Assembly: GCF_036588685.1 (NCBI RefSeq)
Contig: NC_086378.1
Span: forward strand, 28,458,001-28,522,000
DNA: 64,000 nucleotides
Reading direction: 5' to 3'
From: Mytilus trossulus
Taxonomy: Eukaryota
Shown: positions 3,001 to 41,072 of the stretch, in pieces
Layout: every line of letters begins with the position of its first letter
How positions within the stretch are numbered: the first letter of the stretch is position 1
Notes under the pieces: model-generated
What the model saw: only the letters and a program-made list of their open reading frames with translations
What the model was told of the DNA's origin: nothing
Databases searched by the model: none
Position numbers and translations under genes: made by a program

Positions 3001-6000
3001 AGGTGCTTGCTTGGAATATTGAAGTTATATATCGAGAACCAACACCTGAAGTAGAAATAGTCCTGTAGGGTAGTAATGAACAGTACTGTTATAGTTTTAA
3101 TAAAAATCTTGATATAGGGAATGTCTAAATTTATAGGTGTAAACCAACCCTTTCTTAGAACAAAGTTCATAAGTTCATAGGTGTAAACCAACCCTTTCTT
3201 GGAACAAAGTTCATAAGTTCATAGGTGTAAACCAACCCTTTCTTGGAACAAAGTTCATAAGTTCATAGGTGTAAACCAACCCTTTCTTAGAACAAAGTTC
3301 ATTAGATATACTTGAGACTAAACTTTTGTAACCAGAAATATACATGATATATAACAAAAATTGAGAAGCTTAAACCCGAAGCATCAACAGAATAGCTAAA
3401 AACACATAGTAGATGTCCATTCATAGAGGTTTTCAGCGAATATTCCTTCCAAAAGAAATAAATACAGATTGTTTACACAATACACATGTACCTGATCATT
3501 TTTGTTGCATTGAAAACATCACTAAAAATTTAATAGTTTATCAAAAAATCCTCTGATTGAATTTTCAAATGTATATTGTATATGTTTCAGATAAAAAAGC
3601 CTTTTTTGTTGTGGCTAAATCACAGATTTATGAGTTATCAGCTCATACTGGGGAGGAGCAAAAAAAGTAAGTTATACAATGATCTATTGTAGATAGCTTA
3701 TTAACCAATGAAAGTAAGAAAGGAAATTGGGAGCATGATTAATTAAGAAACAGGGATCCATACGCGCATGTATTCAGCAATTTTTTGTAACCTGTTTATA
3801 ATATTGTACTTGCAAGAACCTTAGGAATTGTGTAAGGGATATCAAATCAGTAGAGTTTCTCTGCCCAAGCATGGAGAAGACCCCTCCAGTATATATTGTT
3901 AATACAGGCTGGTGCTTTAACTTAATGTTCTAATTTTGCCCTTCATATATTTCTTGGATCAATTAAATTTCATTCCCTTAAATTATTTCATCTAAAACTG
4001 GTGTTCATTTTGTATTAATCACATTGATTTATCCTTTTTACCGGTATACTGTGTGGCATTAGACATCGAACAAGCATTCAATAATTTATGACATAAATTC
4101 CCTGATTAGAATTCAGTAACACAAAGTTTCTTCATGACAACCTTAATTACATGGTTGGCCCTTGCATACTTTTTATGCCCCACCTACATTAGTAGAGGGG
4201 CATTATGTTTTCTGGTCTGTGCGTCTGTTCATCAGTCCGTTCTTTTGTTCCTCTGTCCTGCTTCAGGTTAAAGTTTTGGTTGAGGTAGTTTTTGATGAAG
4301 TCCAATCAACCTGAAACTTAGTATACATGTTTCTTATGATATTATCTTTCTAATTTTAATGCCAAAGTAGAGTTCTGATCCCAATATCACAGTCCACTGA
4401 ACATAAAAAATGATAGTGTGAGTGGGGCATCTGTGTACTGGGGACACATTCTTGTTTATGACATGTCAACAATTGACAACAAAAGAAAAACAAACAGATG
4501 GAAGCATGAAATAAAGTTTGGGGACAAAATCATAGAATCTGTTTTTCTGTCCTGATAAGTCCATACAGCAAAGAGGTGTTTGATTTCATTTCTGTTATTA
4601 GTACTACTGAAGAGAAGTGATGGAGTTGTTAAAAGGTGATTGCAATAAACGTTAGTGACTCAACATGGTCAAGTTACATAAACAAACATTTCAATCAGAT
4701 GAATTGATTGTGTGCATAAATCATGTAAATAGTGACACCCTTTCCTATTTATCTTTGCAGGTGGATAAAATTGATCAAAGAGTCTGCAGATTCACATAAG
4801 AGAAATAAATCAACTGCTAATCAACTCAGACCTTCCACAAGTCCTGGCAGGTAAGATAAACCCCTGGAAAAGCATGAGAAGATGCCACTGGTGTTGGTAA
4901 GATATGTGGCATCATATGTGTAGCATAAATGACCAACATGTGGTAAACTCAATATAACTTTAATGGTACTGACTTGCTATCTAAATCTTCCTAGGTTTAT
5001 CACTACTTCTGAGATACAGAAAATATAGTGCATGATCATTGATCATAATATTCTAAACATCCTATCCAAACATTTCCAGAAAGTTATGAATTTTATGATC
5101 AGATATTCAAGTTACAAAATTTCCTTCTTGTCAAGAAAATTACATAACTTGTGCAAGGTGCCGGAATCTTAGATCTGTTGTCACTGGCGGATCCAGATAT
5201 TTTCATAAGCCCCCCCCCCTAAATCCGCCTCTTGTTCTGAAAATATCAATGATGCCATTGTTATAGTAATCTTTAAAATTGGAGTTCCTTTATACAATGC
5301 AATGTTTAATTTTACCTTCCATTGATAAGTTAAAGCAATTTTTACTATCTTCTGGCTTACAAGCCCTTAGATTTTTATCAGTATTATGTGCAATTATTGT
5401 TAAATTGTAAAAGAGAGGCAAAGGATACAAAAGGGACATTCAAACTGTATCTGTTTATTACAAAAGGGACCTTCAAACTGTATCTGTTTATTACAAAAGG
5501 GACCTTCAAACTGTATCTGTTTATTACAAAAGGGACCTTCAAACTGTATCTGTTTATTACAAAAGGGACCTTCAAACTGTATCTGTTTATTACAAAAGGG
5601 ACCTTCAAACTGTATCTGTTTATTACAAAAGGGACCTTCAAACTGTATCTGTTTATTACAAAAGGGACCTTCAAACTGTATCTGTTTATTACAAAAGGGA
5701 CCTTCAAACTGTATCTGTTTATTACAAAAGGGACATTCAAACTGTATCTGTTTATTACAAAAGGGACCTTCAAACTGTATCTGTTTATTACAAAAGGGAC
5801 CTTCAAACTGTATCTGTTTATTTGCAGACTTGAGGAGAACAAGGAACCCACAAGGATCTTTTCTTCTGATATGGTGGCTCAAGCAGATGAAACTCAGGAA
5901 CCTGAACTAGAACAACCTGATAAATTAATTATTTCCAGTCCTGTTACTTCTGTAGCGGAACCAGTTCTCACACCATTAGGTACCAGTTATATTATTTTTA

Positions 6001-12000: not shown

Positions 12001-15000
12001 ATGACTTTTATTTCCTGGGTGGTTGATTTTTGAGGAGTGAAGTTTTTGAATTATTTTCATTTTCTGGAGTACACAGTTTATTATTTGAAAAAAAGTTTCT
12101 TTTCTCCCATCTTTGCTTTCTACGGATACTTTTGAAATAATTCATTTAGTTGCACATATTTTCTCTAACCATGTTTTTTTTTTAACTCCCCCCTTTTTTT
12201 CTGAAATATTATATTTATAATTTCTATAGTGTTAGAAAGGATTTGTATAGTATTAATATACGAATCCTGTTTGTTAGTTATTCAACTTGAGTTTTTAGAA
12301 GTAGATGGTCATTTAAGATGGAAGCTTAACAGCATTCAGTCAAGATTTATTTTACATAGAATAGTGTAGATATTACAATTTATTTTCATTTAAAGTTTTT
12401 CTAAATAATCAGCATGCAATTCTATATATATAAAAGGACTTGTAGAAACTAAAATTGGATTTAAGTTATCACAAAACTCTATTATTTGAATCAATTCAGT
12501 ACATGTTGTCAGGTTTGAAAGAAAATAATGTCCTTGTAGTTAGTCATGATATTTTATCTCTTTAATGGATGATTTGAATAGTTTGAAGAAAAAAGACCAA
12601 GTTTGTTATAGTCGTAGTCAGTGTTTGAATATTTATACTGCCAATGATTAAGAAACTTAAAATCTGGTAGGATGTTCATAAGCTTATCCCTATGTGACAT
12701 GTGAACTTTTTTTTGTTTATCTTATTCCATTAAATATTCAATAACTTTTACAAAATCTTCATAAAGCATCTACATGGCCACCAAACACAGAAATACCAGA
12801 TACTGTTGCATTGTATCAATTTTATGCAAAAAAGCCAGTTGAACTATCCAGCCTTCTTAGAGCTTCTAGTTTAGCATAGTATAAACATGTAGATTTATCC
12901 CAGTGTATTCTAGAAAAAACTTTTAAGTTAACAATTTTGATCAACTGTTGAAAAGAATTCCTGTTGGTTCTAAAGAAAATACAGAAGATTAATTTAAATT
13001 TTGTTAAGTGGTCCTTTCAATCTTTTCTTTTAAAACTTTATTTGATTGCATTTGTTTTCTACCAAATTTTCAGGCAGTAGTTGGAAATCGTGATGAGGAA
13101 AGAGAGAGGTTAAGAATGGAACTTAAAGCTGCTCAAGATGAACTGAACATGCTGAGGGAGATCCAAAGAAAAGTATCGTCAACATCTCCACCAGATATAG
13201 TGGCACCACTAGAAAGTGTCAAGCGGGAAAGACCTCAAAGTTTGGTGTCAGAGACATCAACGTTATCTTCAGATGATGGCACACCACAGCAAAGAGATGA
13301 AGGTAAGATTGAGAGATTGGTTTATGAAACTTTGCCATCTAAATATGTCTGTTAATTTCCTTTTTGTTATATAGTATTCTAAGCTATCTTGCACAATCAA
13401 AATAAGGAACAATATGTACAAAAATTTAGAAGGCTTATTTGAGTTCGGAAATCTTGAATTGTTAGTTTCATACTGGACTAATCTTTATTGGAATTCAAAA
13501 TTGGAATATGAAATTCAATATCTGAAAACGCTATAATACGAAAATCTTAAAAGTAATTTAGCTATATAGAAATTATATTAGAACAAATGGAAAACAATTG
13601 TCATATTCTTGACTGGGTACAAACATTTCTGTATAAGATATGCTCCTAGCCATAAGTTTGAAAAAACGAATGCTGCATAGAAATGTTATAAACTAGTTCA
13701 TGGAAAATTTATTAATTTAGTACTGTTGATTCATATTAATTTGTGGGGTGCAAATATTATTGATTTCATTTGTTTAGGCAAACAATGATTGAAGACGTTC
13801 AACACACTATAAAATTTACATAGTATTGTTTGCAGAAGTAAACAATTGCCTGAAAATACAATTTTCTACCAATCCACAATGGTAACAACGTAAATTAATG
13901 AATTCACAGTATTTTTTTTAACACCACATCAACAGTGATATATTGAAACCTCCCTCATCAGTTCAAAACCTTGTATGTCATAATTGTAATGCCATCTTAA
14001 CTCATAAACACAAAGCGAACACACTTGCAAACATAAACATCAAAGTAAAATAGCATATTTTTTTTTAAAGTTTATAAACAGGAAAGGTGCATTAATATCT
14101 TTATAAAAAAAAAAAACTACAGATGTATATGAATTATAGGTAAGTTGCAGTTATGAATTGTTTTGAGTCTGTATATCTTGAAGTGTCAAAGGTCATGAAT
14201 TAGCACCTTGATCATCCAAGGCACAATTTGTAAAAGTAAACCATCATAAGTCAAAGTACGTTCCTCAACACAGAGCCTTGGCTCATACCAAAAAGCAAGC
14301 TATAAAGGGTCAGTCACAAAAATGACATGTATCAATAAAGAACATCTTTATACTTACCCATTATTTCTAAGAATAATACTGACAATATTTTATTTCAGCT
14401 GAATCGGATAGTACTGAAGATATCCCAATGATGGAAGAATCCACAGAACTTATTGAACCGGAAGTTGCCATAGCAACTGAAATCCCTCAGTGCATAGACA
14501 CAAGTGACCTTCAAGAAATTGAACCCTCAGATGAAGAGACAATAGAGGATTTAGATGCTCCCCAAATTCCAGAAAATGATTTACTTCTCGATGCTGAAGT
14601 GCTGCATATATCTAATGTTCAAACAGAGTCAGAATTAGTTGAGGAAGTTCAAGATTTAGACTCATTATCTAACGACAATAAACAAGAATCAGATTCTTTA
14701 ACAGAAGAGGTTAAAAACAAGGACAATACTACAAATGAAAGCTGTGATATTCCTAAAGAATTCCACGACAGTGATCATAAGTCGCTGAATGACGATGTAT
14801 CGACTGATGTCGATGATACAAATTCTGACAGTGAAACAATATCAAATCAGCCAGATATAGAAACAGAAAGAAAAGAAGAAAACAAATCTGAACAAACAAC
14901 TGAAGAAAGTAGTGACAATGATTTTGAAAAAATTGAGAAATCAGAAATACCTAAATCAGATGATTCTGAAATGCATGGTGAAACACAGGATTCAAAATCT

Positions 15001-15228
15001 GAAAACATTTCAAATGAAACGGAAGAAAGTAAACAACAAATCCAAGAACAAAATGATAAATCTCAGGAAAATAATACTGTCACTGAAAGTGAAAGTGAAA
15101 GTAGACTCAATGGTGAGAGTAGCAAAATATCTGATACAGAAAAGTCAGAAGCTGACAATAATGAAAACATAGAAAAAAGTACTGATGCAAATATTAGTGA
15201 TAGCCAGACAATAGAACCTTCTTCATAG
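1..15228 (+). CDS. ARHGEF12: RGS-RhoGEF (LARG/PDZ-RhoGEF/RhoGEF2-like), 5'-partial multi-exon gene: join(<1..60,669..786,1410..1591,2009..2258,3591..3666,4761..4850,5828..5979,7507..7613,8253..8349,8789..8883,13074..13302,14399..15228)
   Basis: Spliced translation ALESLRSRQKKDSRL..RRLQLKDLIPTQMMRLTKYPLLIE..ILEYVNQAVKE..LDLTKHKLVYDGLLTW..LLEDVLVLLQKQDEKLVLK..FSPLLELSSVL..DKKAFFVV..QIYEL..KWIKLI matches the end of the DH domain and the PH domain of LARG/PDZ-RhoGEF. All introns are GT-AG with compatible phases. Invertebrates have one co-orthologue of ARHGEF1/11/12, so the symbol is approximate. Confidence 0.92.
669..786 (+). CDS. ARHGEF12: RhoGEF exon (DH domain CR3 motif)
   Basis: tag|AAESSNLMRRLQLKDLIPTQMMRLTKYPLLIESLMKYTS|gtaggt. 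Confidence 0.92.
1410..1591 (+). CDS. ARHGEF12: RhoGEF exon (DH C-terminal helix)
   Basis: tgcag|QSEEHTKLERALQCSKHILEYVNQAVKEYENHYKLEHLQRK..KMK|gtaagt. Confidence 0.92.
2009..2258 (+). CDS. ARHGEF12: RhoGEF exon (PH domain)
   Basis: tttcag|ELDLTKHKLVYDGLLTW..NSKAT|gtatgt; overlaps ORF 2036..2266. Confidence 0.93.
2354..2535. mobile_element. MITE
   Basis: Imperfect TIRs caattcgcttcagaatctaa / ttagattttgaaaaagcgaattg. Confidence 0.65.
3133..3303. repeat. 44-bp minisatellite, ~3.9 copies
   Basis: ataggtgtaaaccaaccctttcttRgaacaaagttcataagttc at 3133, 3177, 3221, 3265. Confidence 0.92.
3591..3666 (+). CDS. ARHGEF12: RhoGEF exon (PH domain)
   Basis: tttcag|DKKAFFVVAKSQIYELSAHTGEEQK|gtaagt. Confidence 0.9.
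4170..4457 (+). mobile_element. short Helentron-associated (HINE/pearl-like) element
   Basis: 5' T-run plus inverted repeat atgcccc..ggggcat, degenerate GTCC/GTCT microsatellite, 3' sub-TIR gtggggcat plus hairpin ending CTTGTT; second copy at 11500-11800. Confidence 0.72.
4761..4850 (+). CDS. ARHGEF12: RhoGEF exon (PH terminal helix with conserved Trp)
   Basis: ttgcag|WIKLIKESADSHKRNKSTANQLRPSTSPG|gtaaga. Confidence 0.88.
5430..5825. repeat. 33-bp minisatellite, 12 copies, abutting a splice acceptor
   Basis: Unit aaagggaccttcaaactgtatctgtttattaca; it produces the spurious periodic ORFs at 5384-6011. Confidence 0.95.
5828..5979 (+). CDS. ARHGEF12: RhoGEF exon (post-PH region)
   Basis: ttgcag|LEENKEPTRIF..AEPVLTPL|gtacca; phases 2/1 fit the neighbouring exons. 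Confidence 0.8.
7507..7613 (+). CDS. ARHGEF12: RhoGEF exon (coiled coil)
   Basis: ctag|ERARRLDEAVKENLEEKRRLVAQIINDVDERDRLEQ|gtcagt. Confidence 0.8.
8253..8349 (+). CDS. ARHGEF12: RhoGEF exon
   Basis: caacag|ISMSPETESLHNTIQESMEECSSFIIEICDRE|gtatgt; the 3' boundary is less certain because another same-phase donor lies near 8433. Confidence 0.65.
8789..8883 (+). CDS. ARHGEF12: RhoGEF exon
   Basis: tttcag|GLMQENIQMPIPMDKLKEMANRMNQILTNLL|gtaaga. Confidence 0.78.
9845..10009. mobile_element. MITE
   Basis: Imperfect TIRs atacgccttatcgcta / tagcaataatgtgtat. Confidence 0.5.
10274..10327 (+). CDS. candidate 54-nt symmetric cassette exon of the RhoGEF
   Basis: tttcactattcag|EKTRAYHALRAAGQNESG|gtgagt; phase 0/0, stop-free, GC-richer than its flanks. 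Confidence 0.5.
11027..11185. repeat. 79-bp tandem duplication
   Basis: catataataggacaat..acatctttt at 11027 and 11106. Confidence 0.85.
11500..11800 (+). mobile_element. short Helentron-associated (HINE/pearl-like) element
   Basis: Homologous to 4170-4457 over its whole length. Confidence 0.72.
13074..13302 (+). CDS. ARHGEF12: RhoGEF exon (C-terminal coiled coil)
   Basis: tttcag|AVVGNRDEERERLRMELKAAQDELNMLREIQRK..QRDE|gtaaga. Confidence 0.82.
14399..15228 (+). CDS. ARHGEF12: RhoGEF terminal exon, acidic low-complexity tail
   Basis: tttcag acceptor at 14398, phase 1, continuing into ORF 14428..15228 (E/D/S/N-rich) and ending TAG. Confidence 0.8.
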
Positions 15229-22411: not shown

Positions 22412-22760
22412 TAATGTGGATATTTTATTTAAATATGTTATTAATCATGGTTGAAATCGCAGGGCAGTGATTGCATTGCAATCGTATCTGGTAACTATGT
22501 ACATTGTTTATATCTCCTGCGCCTCTACATCATAACTTGTTCATATTGACCAATCAGGATGCAGCATAGGTACCGTTGATATGTCTGGCATTTCATATCA
22601 ACCAATCAAGAGCTAGTATTCATATTTCCCGCTTCATTATTTAGCCAATCAGTTTGTAGGTCAATTAACATCGTCTGGCATCATCGTCAGGTTCAGCATT
22701 CAAAATAATAACTTGCAGCAGCAAACACCTTGTTTAAACTAAGGCTAAAGATTTTTATTC
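22412..22760 (+). repeat. Ngaro split direct repeat A1 (349 bp)
   Basis: taatgtggatatttt..aaagatttttattc, identical by eye to 27362-27710. Confidence 0.95.
22550..22649 (+). promoter_or_regulatory. three CCAAT boxes in repeat A (putative element promoter)
   Basis: gaCCAATcag 22550, aaCCAATcaa 22602, agCCAATcag 22645, all fitting the NF-Y consensus RRCCAATCR. Confidence 0.5.
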
Positions 22761-23180
22761 TCATACTTATTAATTATAAGTTTAACAACCGAAAGTGGAC
22801 GTTCTATACAGTACGATGGAAAGCTTTCATTTACAGTACTATGTGATGAATTTACGATACTAACGAAAGTTTGATATCATCTGTGAAAAAACTTCTTGAT
22901 AGGAATACGGTGATCAATCCGAGGACGTCAAGATAATCTCGCGTGGTACAGCATAATAGTTACCGATGAAACAGTTTGGAAATTCGCAGAATTGTATCGC
23001 ATGTGCAAACCAGAACTTTTAAAGTTGATGAGCATTAAGCTGGAACGTTCTAGACATCCCAATGGATAATACCATACTTAGCGTAACTCCGGAAGCTGAC
23101 CTGGAAATCATGTTTTTTGTGCAGTAATCAACGACTGGATTTATTAACTTTGCTGTGATATTGTGTAGTCAGTTAGCAAG

Positions 23181-24299
23181 ATGACTTTTGAAGGCTCAAG
23201 CTCCAAAACCATGACAGACGTGGAACGGGTTTTGACCTGGGCAGATGCAAAAAAGCTTAGCGAGGCAACGGCAAATGCAGTGATAAGTCTAGGATTTGAC
23301 TCAATGGAAGCTTTGGCGCTTTTAGAAGGCGAAGATCTTCAGAAGACCAAAATACCGATTGGACAACAGAAGCTACTCCTGAAGAGTATAAGGCAGTCAT
23401 TTAAAGCAGAAACTGAAAACGCGCCAAAAGGCAGTAATGGTGGACTTCCGGCATGTCCGACTTCAGAAGATGCGTGCGCACCGGAAATTACAGACATCCA
23501 AGATGGCGGCAACAATAACAATAACAACCTAACATCCGGTTTGACAGACACATGTGTTGGCAATGTTTTAAACCAATTACAACAGCAGCAAGCAGCATCC
23601 GGTGTCATTAATCAAGGTAGTGCTTGTTTTAATAACATTCAGTCCTGGCAGGACCCACAAATATTTATTAAGTCATTAGGAAATAACAAAACTAACTCTA
23701 ATTATTTAGACATTGTTGATTTTGTCATGTTATCAGGGGTAAACAGTGGGGATAACGATGAACGGATTGTATCCGAATCAGGTTCAGGTCAGTTAATTTT
23801 AAAATCTGGACCTTCTAAACCTAAGCTTGAATCGTTAAATGTAAGCCAATGGTCAATGGCAAACTTGGCAATTTTATATAAGTTATTAGAAGAGGGTCAT
23901 CTAGTCCAGAATAACATACTGGACTACCTATCATATGCCACTCGTACGTACCAGTTGTTTCTTTCACATGATGTTACATCAGTTTTCTTTTATGATAGAG
24001 AGTATCGCAGGTTGCAAAAGTTCAGATGGGGAACTGATGTACCACATATTCAAACTGTGTTTTTAAAATCAAAGGGTAGTAATTCTACCAAGTTTTCCAA
24101 ACCTCCAGTGTCTACCTCTAAGGGTTTCAAACCATTTTCTTCTCACACAGCTGGTGGGAAAGAAATATGTAAAAAGTTCAACTCCAGGCTAGGTTGTTCA
24201 CTTAGTGGGTGCAAATTTGAACATGTGTGTAATGTCCCAGGTTGTGGACAAAGACACTCTGGCTCAGGGCATCAGTCTAGCTTTCCAAAAAACGGATAG
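23181..24299 (+). CDS. gag: Ngaro ORF1 Gag-like protein (N-terminal SAM-like domain, C-terminal CCCH plus Cys/His knuckle)
   Basis: 372 aa with ATG start; YDREYRRLQ..RW motif; C-x8-C-x4-C-x3-H followed by C-x4-C-x3-H at the C-terminus. Confidence 0.88.
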   Translation: MTFEGSSSKTMTDVERVLTWADAKKLSEATANAVISLGFDSMEALALLEGEDLQKTKIPIGQQKLLLKSIRQSFKAETENAPKGSNGGLPACPTSEDACAPEITDIQDGGNNNNNNLTSGLTDTCVGNVLNQLQQQQAASGVINQGSACFNNIQSWQDPQIFIKSLGNNKTNSNYLDIVDFVMLSGVNSGDNDERIVSESGSGQLILKSGPSKPKLESLNVSQWSMANLAILYKLLEEGHLVQNNILDYLSYATRTYQLFLSHDVTSVFFYDREYRRLQKFRWGTDVPHIQTVFLKSKGSNSTKFSKPPVSTSKGFKPFSSHTAGGKEICKKFNSRLGCSLSGCKFEHVCNVPGCGQRHSGSGHQSSFPKNG

Positions 24300-25933
24300 G
24301 CCCAGTAAAACCTCTGCGTGACCTTCACCTTGATGCTTGGGTTACTGAACTAAAGTATGACTTTGACAAGGAATACTTACTTCATGGTATAGAATTTGGG
24401 TTTGACATTGTGACCTCAGCAGCTAATGAGTTACCATCAGGAATAGTTGGTAAAAACCACCCATCCGCTTCACCTAACAACCCCCTTTACGAAAAAGCTC
24501 ATTTGCAAATTCTAAATGAAATAGAATGTGGCAACTATGTTTTTGCTGAAAAAACTCCCCGCATAATAAGTCCATTAGCAGTTATACCTAAACCAGATGG
24601 GGGAGTTCGTATTATTCATGATTGTAGTAGACCAGAGGGGTCTGCAGTAAACTCCTTTGTTGGCGAAATAGAAAAACAAAGATTTCAAACTTTAGATGAA
24701 GCATCAAAATTAGTTACTCCTAACTGTTATATGGCTAAAGTAGATTTAAAAACAGCTTATAGATCGGTGAACCTTAGCTCACAAAGTCAAGAAGTTACTG
24801 GTTTAAAATGGACCTTCCCTGATGGAACAGAATATACTTTTTATGATACAAAGCTTCCATTTGGATCAAAATTGGCACCCCATATTTTTCATAGGCTATC
24901 CCAAGCTGTCCGTCGTATGATGTCACGCAGAGGTTTTACTATCATCGCATACTTAGATGATTTTCTTATTTGTGAAACAACAAAGCAGCGTTGTATTCAA
25001 GCATTGAACATTTTACTCGCCCTTCTTCGCAAGTTGGGTTTTATGATAAATTGGTCAAAAGTGGTTGACCCCACCACTAAATTGACTTTCTTAGGCATAG
25101 ACATTGACTCTACTGCAATGGAGTTAAGGCTTCCAGGGGAAAAGCTTTCCCTACTTAAGCATGAATTGGCAGAATTTAGTAAGCGAAAAAGAGCATCAAA
25201 AAAGCAATTGCAATCTATAGCAGGCAAACTTAATTGGGCATCAGCAGTGGTTCATGGCGGGAGAGTATTCCTTCGCAGAATTATTGACGCGATTACCCCT
25301 TTAAAGCATGATTGGCATAAGGCAATCCTCCATGGCGAAATATGGCATGATATTGAATGGTGGAAAAAATTCCTAGAGACCTTTAATGGAAAGTCCCTCA
25401 TTTTAGAAAAGATCCCCTTGTCATCAGTATACACAGATGCATGCAAGGAGGGGGGAGGGGGTTTCTTTGGTTATGACTGGTTTTATACGAATTGGGAAAA
25501 TGATTTCCCTGTAGTGAAAAATCTCCATATCAATGAGCTTGAGGCTCTTGCAGTAGTCTTGGCAGCGCAAAGATGGGGGAAAGATTGGGAAAATAAAAAA
25601 GTTGTTGTTTTCTCAGACAATATGACCACTGTTGCATGCTTGAATAAGTGCACTTCACGCAGCAAAATTTTGATGTCTTACCTAAGGGGCTTGTTTTGGC
25701 TCTCTGCAACATATAATTTTCATATAACAGCCGTTCATGTGCCAGGGAAAGAAAATATTATGGCAGACTTCATATCTAGGTTACATGAGCCAAAGGCGTT
25801 TTACCAATTTATGAATTTTTATCTTCCCAAACCACTGTTTGTAAGGCACTTGGAATCCCATATGTCTAACCAAGCCCTATCCTATCTTTTATGTAGGCAT
25901 TCCAAGTGCAGGGCAGGTGCAGGAGTTGGATAG
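24281..25933 (+). CDS. pol: Ngaro ORF2 reverse transcriptase-RNase H; frame open from 24281 with no usable ATG (probable -1 frameshift from gag)
   Basis: Motifs YLLHGIEFGFDI, KPDGGVRIIHD, AKVDLKTAY, LPFG, AYLDDFL, TFLGI; RNase H YTDAC, INELE, SDN, NIMADFISR. Confidence 0.93.
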   Translation, partial: LSKKRIGPVKPLRDLHLDAWVTELKYDFDKEYLLHGIEFGFDIVTSAANELPSGIVGKNHPSASPNNPLYEKAHLQILNEIECGNYVFAEKTPRIISPLAVIPKPDGGVRIIHDCSRPEGSAVNSFVGEIEKQRFQTLDEASKLVTPNCYMAKVDLKTAYRSVNLSSQSQEVTGLKWTFPDGTEYTFYDTKLPFGSKLAPHIFHRLSQAVRRMMSRRGFTIIAYLDDFLICETTKQRCIQALNILLALLRKLGFMINWSKVVDPTTKLTFLGIDIDSTAMELRLPGEKLSLLKHELAEFSKRKRASKKQLQSIAGKLNWASAVVHGGRVFLRRIIDAITPLKHDWHKAILHGEIWHDIEWWKKFLETFNGKSLILEKIPLSSVYTDACKEGGGGFFGYDWFYTNWENDFPVVKNLHINELEALAVVLAAQRWGKDWENKKVVVFSDNMTTVACLNKCTSRSKILMSYLRGLFWLSATYNFHITAVHVPGKENIMADFISRLHEPKAFYQFMNFYLPKPLFVRHLESHMSNQALSYLLCRHSKCRAGAGVG

Positions 25934-26888
25934 CCTGGTTTTGTTTTTCCAAAGCAGGATGTTTGCAGACTCAACAAAAAAGACATATATGTTGTATTTT
26001 AGAAGTTATGAATCCTTTTGCAGAGGTTTATTAATTCCTATGGTCCCAATTAGCAAAGACAATTTGGCCAGATATATTGTTTTTCTAACGCAAAGGCTTT
26101 GTTATAACTCAGTTGTCAATTATTTAAATATTGTGCGCCTCCTGCATGAAGAGGCTGAGTTACCTTACCCTATTGATACACATTTTGTCAAAGGTGTCTT
26201 AAAAGGGGTTAAAAGAGTTCTAGGGGCTGAAAAACGCCCCAAATTACCCATAACTCCTAAAATACTGTCTGGCATTTTTACCACTATAGACTTAAATGAA
26301 AGTTTGGATATAACTTTTTGGGCAGCTTGCTTAGTAGCATTTTTTTCCTTTTTCAGGAAATCAAACCTTTTTACACCATCTTTACAGGAATTTAATCCTG
26401 ATCGGCATTTAAATAGGGCATCTGTTAAGTTTTCGAAGGAGGGGGCCACTTTAACACTCAGGAAAACAAAGACCATACAAAATAGGGAAAGAGCTCTCGA
26501 AGTACCTTTACCTATAATTCCAGGTTCCCCCTTCTGTCCTTGTCAAGCTTTGAAACTATCGTTTGATATATGTCCTTCCACTCATAATTTGGTGTCAGCT
26601 TTTATGTTTTCCTCCAAGTCCAAGTTAATGCCCCTTACATATAATGGGTTTTTAGCCAGATTGAAACAGTCTTTAAAATCTCTGGGATATGACAGTTCTA
26701 AGTACTCCGGGCACAGTTTTCGTAGAGGCGGGGCAACTTTTGCATTAGAATGTGGCGTCCCTTCTGAAATTATCCAAACACAGGGGGATTGGAAGAGTGA
26801 TGCATACAAAAATTATTTAGATCCTTCTTTCACTAACCGACAGACTGTCATGAATGTCTTTGCAAAAGCACTTCCCAAAATGGTATAA
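25917..26888 (+). CDS. Ngaro ORF3 tyrosine recombinase (phage integrase family)
   Basis: Catalytic residues R (FFRKSNL), K (KTKT), HxxR (GHSFRRGGAT), W (GDWKS), Y (AYKNY). The track start is GTG; the first ATG is at 25959. Confidence 0.95.
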   Translation: MQELDSLVLFFQSRMFADSTKKTYMLYFRSYESFCRGLLIPMVPISKDNLARYIVFLTQRLCYNSVVNYLNIVRLLHEEAELPYPIDTHFVKGVLKGVKRVLGAEKRPKLPITPKILSGIFTTIDLNESLDITFWAACLVAFFSFFRKSNLFTPSLQEFNPDRHLNRASVKFSKEGATLTLRKTKTIQNRERALEVPLPIIPGSPFCPCQALKLSFDICPSTHNLVSAFMFSSKSKLMPLTYNGFLARLKQSLKSLGYDSSKYSGHSFRRGGATFALECGVPSEIIQTQGDWKSDAYKNYLDPSFTNRQTVMNVFAKALPKMV

Positions 26889-27006
26889 AATGGTTTTCTA
26901 ATCATAAATTTTTTAATAACATTGATATCTAAGTTTTTATTATTCTGTGTACAAATATTTATATACTATCCCCTACCTCTAAATACAGGTTTGGATTTCT
27001 ATTTTG

Positions 27007-27367
27007 GAGAACCACAGTTTTTATTACACATCATTTATCTTTTGTATTCATGCATTACTTACATTTTGTATTTGCCTTAATTCATTTAGCATTATCTTCA
27101 ATTATTGTATAATTGAAATAATTACATGCATACTTAATAAACTGTGGTTAGTTTTCCCAAACCTGTCTTTGTTCAAATATATAACCAACACTGCCTTATG
27201 TTCTATTTGGCCGCTGAATCCTTCGGGTGTATCCAAACTTGATATGGGACGTTATATAAGTCATACCATATCAAGCGTTGGCAGGGAGGCTGAAAAGAGG
27301 CAGTGTTTAACATCATTGGCAAAGGGGGGAAGGGTGGGTCCTTATTTTCATAACATAAGATTAATGT
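27007..27367 (+). repeat. Ngaro split direct repeat B1 (361 bp)
   Basis: gagaaccacag..cataagattaatgt, identical by eye to 27870-28230. Confidence 0.95.
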
Positions 27368-27710
27368 GGATATTTTATTTAAATATGTTATTAATCATGG
27401 TTGAAATCGCAGGGCAGTGATTGCATTGCAATCGTATCTGGTAACTATGTACATTGTTTATATCTCCTGCGCCTCTACATCATAACTTGTTCATATTGAC
27501 CAATCAGGATGCAGCATAGGTACCGTTGATATGTCTGGCATTTCATATCAACCAATCAAGAGCTAGTATTCATATTTCCCGCTTCATTATTTAGCCAATC
27601 AGTTTGTAGGTCAATTAACATCGTCTGGCATCATCGTCAGGTTCAGCATTCAAAATAATAACTTGCAGCAGCAAACACCTTGTTTAAACTAAGGCTAAAG
27701 ATTTTTATTC
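27362..27710 (+). repeat. Ngaro split direct repeat A2
   Basis: Copy of A1; overlaps B1 by TAATGT. Confidence 0.95.
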
Positions 27711-27869
27711 CCACCCTCCCAACCCTCATTCATGTATTTATGTAATGGCAATCAGTTCATGAACTGTCTTTTAAGTTTGTATCTTGTCATGTTTATTTTT
27801 TTTTTTGTACTGTTTATTATATAATATTGTATTCATTGTATTTTCATGTGTAGTTTAGTCTTGATGTTT

Positions 27870-28230
27870 GAGAACCACAGTTTTTATTACACATCATTTA
27901 TCTTTTGTATTCATGCATTACTTACATTTTGTATTTGCCTTAATTCATTTAGCATTATCTTCAATTATTGTATAATTGAAATAATTACATGCATACTTAA
28001 TAAACTGTGGTTAGTTTTCCCAAACCTGTCTTTGTTCAAATATATAACCAACACTGCCTTATGTTCTATTTGGCCGCTGAATCCTTCGGGTGTATCCAAA
28101 CTTGATATGGGACGTTATATAAGTCATACCATATCAAGCGTTGGCAGGGAGGCTGAAAAGAGGCAGTGTTTAACATCATTGGCAAAGGGGGGAAGGGTGG
28201 GTCCTTATTTTCATAACATAAGATTAATGT
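27870..28230 (+). repeat. Ngaro split direct repeat B2
   Basis: Copy of B1; similarity ends after taatgt at 28230. Confidence 0.95.
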
Positions 28231-39445: not shown

Positions 39446-41072
39446 TCATTTTATTTGGTTATTTAGAGATGTCATCCGTACAATAGAATGTCTGGTTTTT
39501 GATATAGATGTCTCAGAACGACTTAAACGTCTTATACTTCTTTTAAATAAATGTTTGAACCCATGTCTGTATTTTTTGTTAACCCAGAAATACAATAATG
39601 GGTTTGCTAAACAATTGGCGAATGTAAGCCACTGGAACACACACCACGACATGTACACACTCGTTGTTTTGAGAAAAAACGGATTCTCTTCACCTATAAC
39701 AGTTAGTATCTCCATGGGTAACCATGACACAGCAAAGGTTGTTACCATAGACACCAGTATTTTCACACTCTGTAATTAGAAAAAAACTTATATCACGAAA
39801 AATTCCTATAGCATATTAGTCCGGAAGACACCAACAATTATCACTATGACATTGTATTAATGTATTTTCAAATACTTTAGGATACATAATTAATAAAGGT
39901 CAGAAGATTATTTTCAAGGAAAACTTAGAAAACAATAAAACTTTTAATCCACTAACTTTCGAATTGGTAATTTTCAAGTTTTTTATGTTCATGGCCATTT
40001 CATACTTTTTTCATTGGCCATTTACGAGTTATCTATGTAAATATCAATCCAATAACTTTTTTAATAGGTCATTTTCAAATGATCTGTGTGAATGGTCAAT
40101 CCATTTTACTCTGTCGGTATTTTTGAAAAAAATCCTTGAGAGTTTTCTATGTCGGTTACTTGGAAAACAAATAATAAAGTTTAATCTCAATTAAAAACCT
40201 TAACTGAAAAAGTACTTCAAATATGTAATAGAATTTGACAGATAGCTGAATTAAGCGAAACACTAATAACTGCTTACCTTTCGTTTAGAAGAAGCTATCT
40301 TTTTATCTCTTTTTAAGTCTGCTTCACCAGGGGTTTTCTTAGTAAGTAATGTATAAGCTATATGCGTGTTGCAGATAGTCATGAACATTAGTGGTAGGTA
40401 AAAATGAAGGAACATTAAACTGTAAGTATAAAGCTTCCTTCGAGACATCGATGACCATATTTCTGTACAAATTCCTATAGAGTCTCCCTTGAACATGACA
40501 AATACCACACTCGAGGTTGATGCTGAAGGTAATGCAATTATTCCTGCTACTATATACGTGAATAACACGATTATCTGGGCTTTTCGCTTACTTAATCTCC
40601 GTTTTAATGGTCGTGCGACAATCAAATGTCTATCTAGTGTTATTGCCGACATATTAAACGACTTTTGTAAGACTAATATCCATTGAATATATTGAATCAT
40701 TGAGCATGCAAATGATCCAAAAGGCCAGCTTCCTATGAGAATGGTACTTATTTTGGTGAACGGTACAGAACAAATTATCATTACAATATCACCGATGGCA
40801 ATGCTTGTCATGAAGAAATTACTTATTGTTGTAGATTTACGTTTCACGGAATACTTCAGAACGATGCAAAATCCTATATTTCCCAAGAATGCCATGGTGA
40901 ATGTCAACACATATATAATTATCATCACTATAACAAAAGTATATGGCACTTGGTGATGATCCACCATACTTAATTCATTCTCATATAACAATTGTAAGTC
41001 AGACAAGTTGTATGTAACATTTGATCCGTTGGGAAAATCCCAGTACAGATCATCCAAAGATATGCCATCCAT
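39446..41072 (-). CDS. rhodopsin-family neuropeptide GPCR, luqin/RYamide receptor-like; complement(join(39446..39769,40278..41072)), 372 aa
   Basis: TM motifs LGN, IAIGD, WPFGSFAC, LDRH, CTEIW, FYLPL, FAVSWLP, NPLLY; ICL3 TPGEAD..RD..SKRK typical of RYamide/luqin receptors; phase-0 intron AAG|gtaagc..tacag|AGT. Confidence 0.88.

Follow-up and report, generated by a model that had tools for sequence, protein, structure and literature searches.

A candidate −1 frameshift site between gag and RT/RNase H in a Ngaro-type tyrosine-recombinase retrotransposon of Mytilus trossulus

Results

Structure and copies of the element

The window, a whole stretch of 64,000 nt from the mussel Mytilus trossulus (forward strand of contig NC_086378.1, positions 28,458,001 to 28,522,000), contains at 22412-28228 what, judged from its sequence, is an intact and young Ngaro-type (split-direct-repeat) tyrosine-recombinase (YR) retrotransposon. 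Its open frames follow one another in the order gag (23169-24299), pol (24281-25933), and YR (25845-26888), and its main features are as follows:

22412-28228, + strand: whole element, Ngaro-type YR retrotransposon, A1-[gag, RT/RH, YR]-B1-A2-B2, with TAAT at start and end
22412-22760, + strand: repeat A1, 100% identical to A2
23181-24299, + strand: gag-like ORF of 372 aa, counted from its first ATG, 249 homologues
24168-24257, + strand: Cys/His zinc-finger-like motif at the Gag C-terminus, a pattern match and not a Pfam match
24281-25933, + strand: pol frame, −1 relative to gag, with RT (Pfam RVT_1, 9e-22; YLDD at 24950) and an RNase H-like domain
25897-26888, + strand: exon for the tyrosine recombinase, in a frame +1 relative to pol and open from 25845
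27003-27367, + strand: repeat B1, 99.7% identical to B2
27362-27710, + strand: repeat A2
27867-28228, + strand: repeat B2

Split direct repeats placed as A1-ORFs-B1-A2-B2 around gag-like, RT/RNase H, and YR ORFs in that order are the layout given for the Ngaro superfamily (order DIRS) in the accessible parts of PMC8547959, PMC3783388, and PMC9210276. As in that superfamily, the element has no Pfam match to a protease or DDE integrase, and none to a methyltransferase, at E values up to 0.1. The Ngaro assignment is based on layout and ORFs; our trees contain no named references, and PAT elements also have split repeats. The gag product has no Pfam match, the RNase H domain scores under the curated Pfam cut-off, and the recombinase falls just under it (Phage_integrase, 1e-5) with its H-x-x-R and Tyr motifs present.

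Four more copies with 92-99.6% identity were found in assembly G000, and the closest named proteins belong to Mytilus mussels (84-99%). All three copies with both ends have unrelated flanks and are bordered by TAAT on each side apart from AAT at one 5' end, which points to insertion at a short core with no duplication of the target site. The viral contigs that were scanned held no relative. Elsewhere in the window lie a GPCR-like exon recognized by eye (40263-41072, − strand), an acidic low-complexity ORF (14383-15228, + strand), a 33-nt tandem array (5327-5920), and tandem repeats of 502 nt and 1328 nt at 49.7-51.8 kb and 61-64 kb.

The gag/pol junction

The junction between the first two frames contains three features of interest:

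24278-24280, + strand: TAG bounding the pol frame on its 5' side; copy L008 has TGG here, hence not invariant
24287-24293, + strand: slippery heptamer A_AAA_AAC in the gag register
24297-24299, + strand: gag stop TAG, 3 nt past the heptamer, a candidate stimulator

A first-pass annotation, made from the letters of the window, had proposed that Gag is fused to RT/RNase H by a programmed −1 ribosomal frameshift stimulated by a downstream RNA stem, and its description of the junction agrees with ours. The pol frame opens directly after the TAG at 24278-24280 and overlaps gag by 19 nt (24281-24299), and within the overlap the heptamer lies in the X_XXY_YYZ register of gag (CCA AAA AAC), followed by the single sense codon GGA and the TAG. 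A −1 slip would lead into pol with the predicted junction ...FPKN-RIGPVK (or FPK-KRIGPVK). The first ATG of the pol frame is codon 151 (24731), 107 codons past the GTG at 24410, beyond the GGVRIIHD motif (codon 107) and beyond the start of the RT domain. The mouse mammary tumor virus uses A_AAA_AAC at its gag-pro junction. The same heptamer is listed among the shiftiest for mammalian ribosomes in the part of the frameshifting review PMC5009743 available to us. Within the window alone the heptamer is weak evidence, because this gag holds four other X_XXY_YYZ heptamers in register; the chance of finding one in the overlap is about 0.07.

Conservation of the heptamer among relatives

For relatives within assembly G000, 150 of 791 candidates were scored as matches, and 30 loci and 39 hand-picked stretches were used together with a gag search. 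Relatives outside this assembly comprised eight loci from metagenomes and nine from prokaryote assemblies apparently holding host DNA, 14 of which were kept after leaving out L083 (without gag), L078 (matching the G000 family L057), and L122 (outside the clade). Together with one representative for each of seven G000 families they make up a comparison set of 21 elements, which form one clade (100/99) in a tree where L019 replaces L061. The loci L114-L122 are retrotransposons of animal type, and the contigs that carry them, which are filed as bacterial MAGs, are probably host DNA.

Conservation at the ORF1/ORF2 junction of sister families was a check set beforehand, and it favored the proposed site. 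The pol frame is at −1 in 19 of the 21 elements (7 from G000, 12 from other assemblies), whose pol identity to the window is 38-67%, and all 19 have an in-register heptamer inside the overlap, with 0-30 nt between it and the gag stop (scoring window ≤45 nt). Fifteen of these are A_AAA_AAC, one is A_AAA_AAU, one U_UUA_AAC, and two C_CCA_AAA. No heptamer occurs near the gag stop in any of 18 outgroup families of G000 (pol at +1 in 15, in frame in two, gapped in one), and A_AAA_AAC does not recur in register elsewhere in the gag frames of the 19 elements (roughly 6,000 codons); the heptamer is therefore present above chance. These 19 elements amount to fewer than 19 independent trials because of their kinship (L119 is close to L120 and L056 to L057, and four come from one assembly), for which reason we set aside the naive product of chances over them (10^-23.7). 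L115-L118 have a TGA in the pol frame right beside the heptamer, so that the 10-nt overlap consists of little more than heptamer and stop. A_AAA_AAC is kept in all five G000 copies of the element itself. It has been lost from the single copies L018, L024, and L097, in which pol is broken, short, or absent.

It could be argued that a Lys-Asn pair is kept for the function of Gag and that the heptamer is a by-product, since the pair is conserved at the protein level: among 108 Gag proteins (the best 120 of 249 homologues minus 11 without the zinc-finger pattern and one fused protein), Lys-Asn occurs within the last 16 residues in 90 and as the C-terminal end in 62, against 1.3% for other windows, and oyster proteins are among those carrying it. 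The pair is absent near the C-terminus of the other 18, of which the DNA was examined for L080 only. Synonymous codons are nevertheless avoided: where the junction encodes Lys-Asn, 16 of 16 elements have A_AAA and 15 of 16 have A_AAA_AAC, for which codon use predicts about 0.08. Other heptamers moreover bring other residues (Leu-Asn, Pro-Lys), and the heptamer is gone where the pol frame is 0, which makes a by-product of Gag function extremely unlikely.

The two clade members with gag and pol in frame, L080 (nested in a 97/99 subclade) and L121, are without a heptamer and have TAG CTAG and TGA CTCA, respectively, at the junction. A stop followed by CUAG is a readthrough motif. In L080, L121, and the separate clade formed by L052 and L071, a lone stop separates gag from pol, with CTAG after it in three of them and CTCA in one, and all four are candidates for readthrough. 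They resemble the gag-pol stop readthrough of Moloney murine leukemia virus (PMC5009743, in part) and Candida Tca2, a mechanism different from that proposed for the window. Other layouts also occur in G000: pol lies at +1 with an overlap of 158-746 nt and an ATG inside it in L036, L040-L045, L048, L054, L062, L064, L068, L070, L073, and L075, the YR families L046, L047, L055, L069, and L072 have a single fused ORF, and L051, L062, L064, and L071 have a fourth ORF of 187-219 codons 3' of YR.

Start codons in the pol frame

Pol could instead be translated from a start of its own, either by re-initiation after the gag stop or from a near-cognate codon, of which the window offers ATA at 24296, CTG at 24314, and GTG at 24410. 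Five of the 19 elements do have an ATG before the conserved Trp of pol, in three cases downstream of the heptamer and in L058 as a TAATG stop-start. Yet the remaining 14, the window included, have no ATG this early, the five that have one still keep the heptamer, and a start at GTG 24410 would leave out 39 codons that have aligned counterparts in the relatives; we consider an independent start very unlikely. In L058 and L098, a TAATG stop-start overlap lies right after the heptamer, and re-initiation may there add to frameshifting.

Transcript evidence and splicing of the recombinase

Transcripts were assessed on assembled contigs, which drop rare forms, of four runs from four studies (X1, X3, X7, and X15; three taken to be RNA by guess, one of unknown type). 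These contigs implicate two splice sites:

23616-23622, + strand: splice donor in gag, G|GTAGTG, phase 1, about 145 codons from the ATG, seen as a contig joint and a loose end
25866-25896, + strand: YR splice acceptor made up of CTAAC, a pyrimidine tract, and TAG

One X7 contig (depth 2) skips 23617-25896 with GT..AG borders and joins gag in frame to YR, giving 475 aa, and the same join (NQG-IPSAG) is found in two RefSeq models (P0017 and P0195; XP_063402490.1 and XP_071165966.1). In relatives, acceptor-like sites are found 3' of the pol H-M-S codons, and a phase-1 AG with a pyrimidine fraction of at least 0.65 is present at the YR start in 14 of 15 elements, a count made without a null model. 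YR lies at +1 to pol in 13 of the 15 elements with a YR start, four of these copies having a broken pol. Frameshifting into YR is not supported at this +1 position, and the joint, the RefSeq models, the acceptor features, and the frame together make it probable that YR is spliced. Splicing from gag, and not the frameshift that a review proposed, thus seems to produce the recombinase, and part of this route is directly visible in the X7 joint.

Further observations concern gag in the same contigs. An X3 contig leaves the donor at 23616 onto a host exon that is absent from the window and that we take to be septin-like, and a copy of the element may splice from the gag donor into a host gene. X3 and X15 contigs start at 23732 and 23734 next to an AG with a pyrimidine tract, as would fit an in-frame gag intron of 120 nt (23617-23736), for which the contigs contain no joint. 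The window gag lacks 9 nt in frame at 24017 that are present in contigs of all four runs.

The element does splice, as the YR joint demonstrates, and the main rival to a frameshift is that pol is reached from a gag donor through an acceptor at the start of pol (the TAG at 24297-24299 or at 24278-24280). The gag TAG is in phase with the donor at 23616 and is automatically an in-frame phase-1 acceptor, the stop is TAG in 14 of the 19 elements, an X7 contig starts at 24299 among the contig pieces listed, and four database models (P0001, P0003, P0006, and P0024) join gag to pol by predicted introns, P0006 with the gag TAG as acceptor. These models, however, enter pol at four different points, and two of them cut the conserved N-terminus. 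The gag TAG is preceded by an A-run with a pyrimidine fraction of 0.35-0.47 in all 14 elements, against 0.76 at the YR acceptor of the window, and in L057 and L058 the Trp is not preceded by any phase-1 AG. In X1, X3, and X15, contigs span 24281-24350 continuously, and among the joints listed for the four runs none ends near the gag/pol junction or leads into pol, whereas one run has the YR joint. These crossings, in three of the four runs, count in favor of the frameshift. Splicing would also leave unexplained both the heptamer and its loss in the in-frame members, and we regard it as very unlikely.

Six A residues make a short run for polymerase slippage. An RNA polymerase could still slip on the A6 and add a base, so that an edited mRNA fuses gag to pol, and runs of six or seven A are indeed found at most junctions. 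But U_UUA_AAC and C_CCA_AAA keep the ribosomal register and not the A-run, the C at position 7 is kept, and the contigs of the four runs, in which rare forms are dropped, have no indel at the A-run; transcript editing is accordingly exceedingly improbable. Against these alternatives, we assign a probability of about 0.85 to a programmed −1 ribosomal frameshift at A_AAA_AAC as the predicted link between Gag and RT/RNase H.

Search for a stimulator

The part of the earlier proposal that did not hold up concerns the stimulator of the frameshift, for which the following stem had been named:

24303-24347, + strand: stem CAGUAA/UUACUG, present, neither significant nor conserved

Its two arms (24303-24308 and 24342-24347) are present and complementary (6/6), but the fold of the region is matched by 62 of 200 shuffles (z −0.48, not above chance), and only 1-4 of the 6 pairs are retained in each of 15 relatives compared (three with different spacing excluded). 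We therefore rejected this stem, while the frameshift site itself stands with the heptamer kept in sister families. Folding 3' of the 19 junctions gave a mean z of −0.03 over 45 nt and −0.12 over 70 nt, not different from the background of 95 windows taken from pol, and in a simple H-type search no predicted pseudoknot beat shuffles (best p 0.08); these methods detect pseudoknots only crudely and long-range pairing not at all, and not all sites have a 3' structure. A single element, L061, had a stem that beat 100 of 100 shuffles. Pro and Trp codons can account for a recurring CCC/UGGG pairing.

No 3' feature is more constant than the gag stop itself, which directly abuts the heptamer (0 nt) in 8 of the 19 elements and lies within 6 nt in 14. 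We infer that the adjacent stop, rather than an RNA structure, may act as the stimulator. A comparable arrangement is known from the pea enation mosaic umbravirus, where the shift at G_GAU_UUU_UGG_UAG depends on a stop 3 nt downstream (PMC5009743, in the part available). The window likewise has its stop 3 nt past the heptamer (A_AAA_AAC_GGA_UAG); the virus differs in also having 3' structures.

Discussion

The expression scheme that we propose starts from the register, the short overlap, the lack of an early in-frame ATG, and the conservation of the site, from which we infer the slipping, its rate, and its stimulator. On unspliced RNA, ribosomes would start at the gag ATG (23181), and most would stop at the TAG (24297-24299) to yield the 372-aa Gag, while a minority would slip by −1 on A_AAA_AAC, with tRNA-Lys in the P site and tRNA-Asn in the A site, and continue into pol to give a Gag-RT-RNase H fusion about 917 aa long. 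The recombinase would be produced separately by splicing from 23616 to 25897 as a GagN-YR protein of about 475 aa. The N-terminus of Gag would be common to all three products and could serve to recruit both enzymes to the particle, and the fusions may stay whole, because YR elements have no protease (PMC3783388, in part).

The predicted mechanism is a known one, placed in an order for which we found no such site described and in an unusual overall layout. It shares with the −1 frameshifting of retroviruses and LTR retrotransposons (PMC5009743, in part) an X_XXY_YYZ heptamer in a short gag/pol overlap and a Gag-Pol fusion as the minor product. It differs in belonging to another retrotransposon order, in having no pseudoknot or stem that we could find, in lacking a protease to cut the fusion, and in an integration enzyme that is not part of Pol.

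In the portions of text covered, a literature search found no recoding or slippery site described for YR retrotransposons. DIRS, Ngaro, and tyrosine recombinases are unmentioned in the portion of PMC5009743 examined, and the portions of PMC6681497, PMC3266345, PMC9210276, PMC7192593, PMC5633606, and two preprints held nothing bearing on the site. The idea of gag-pol frameshifting is probably not new, since Goodwin and Poulter 2004 or Poulter and Butler 2015 may say the same; in the same search we came across no published account of this site or of its conservation, nor of a change to in-frame stops or a spliced YR. As quoted in the accessible part of PMC13003380, Poulter and Butler 2015 describe a YR frame that overlaps RT/RH at −1 and is probably reached via frameshifting, whereas in the window YR is at +1 and apparently spliced, and the frameshift signal lies at gag-pol.

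More broadly, and tentatively, a widespread clade of animal Ngaro elements may express from one transcript three proteins with a common Gag N-terminus, namely Gag, Gag-RT/RNase H by a structure-free, stop-driven −1 frameshift, and GagN-recombinase by splicing, with some lineages swapping the frameshift for readthrough; we give this whole picture somewhat less than even odds. As the site, products, and junction peptides are named, each can be tested by a short reporter or on existing RNA data.

For the expression of overlapping ORFs in YR retrotransposons, the literature accessible to us offers only a guess of frameshifting, made for the recombinase. If the frameshift proposed here is true, that guess would be reversed for this clade, and retrovirus-style gag-pol recoding would extend to an order without protease or integrase. 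The junctions would then represent natural heptamer-plus-stop sites without evident structure, and gene models that now span the junction by inconsistent introns would be corrected.
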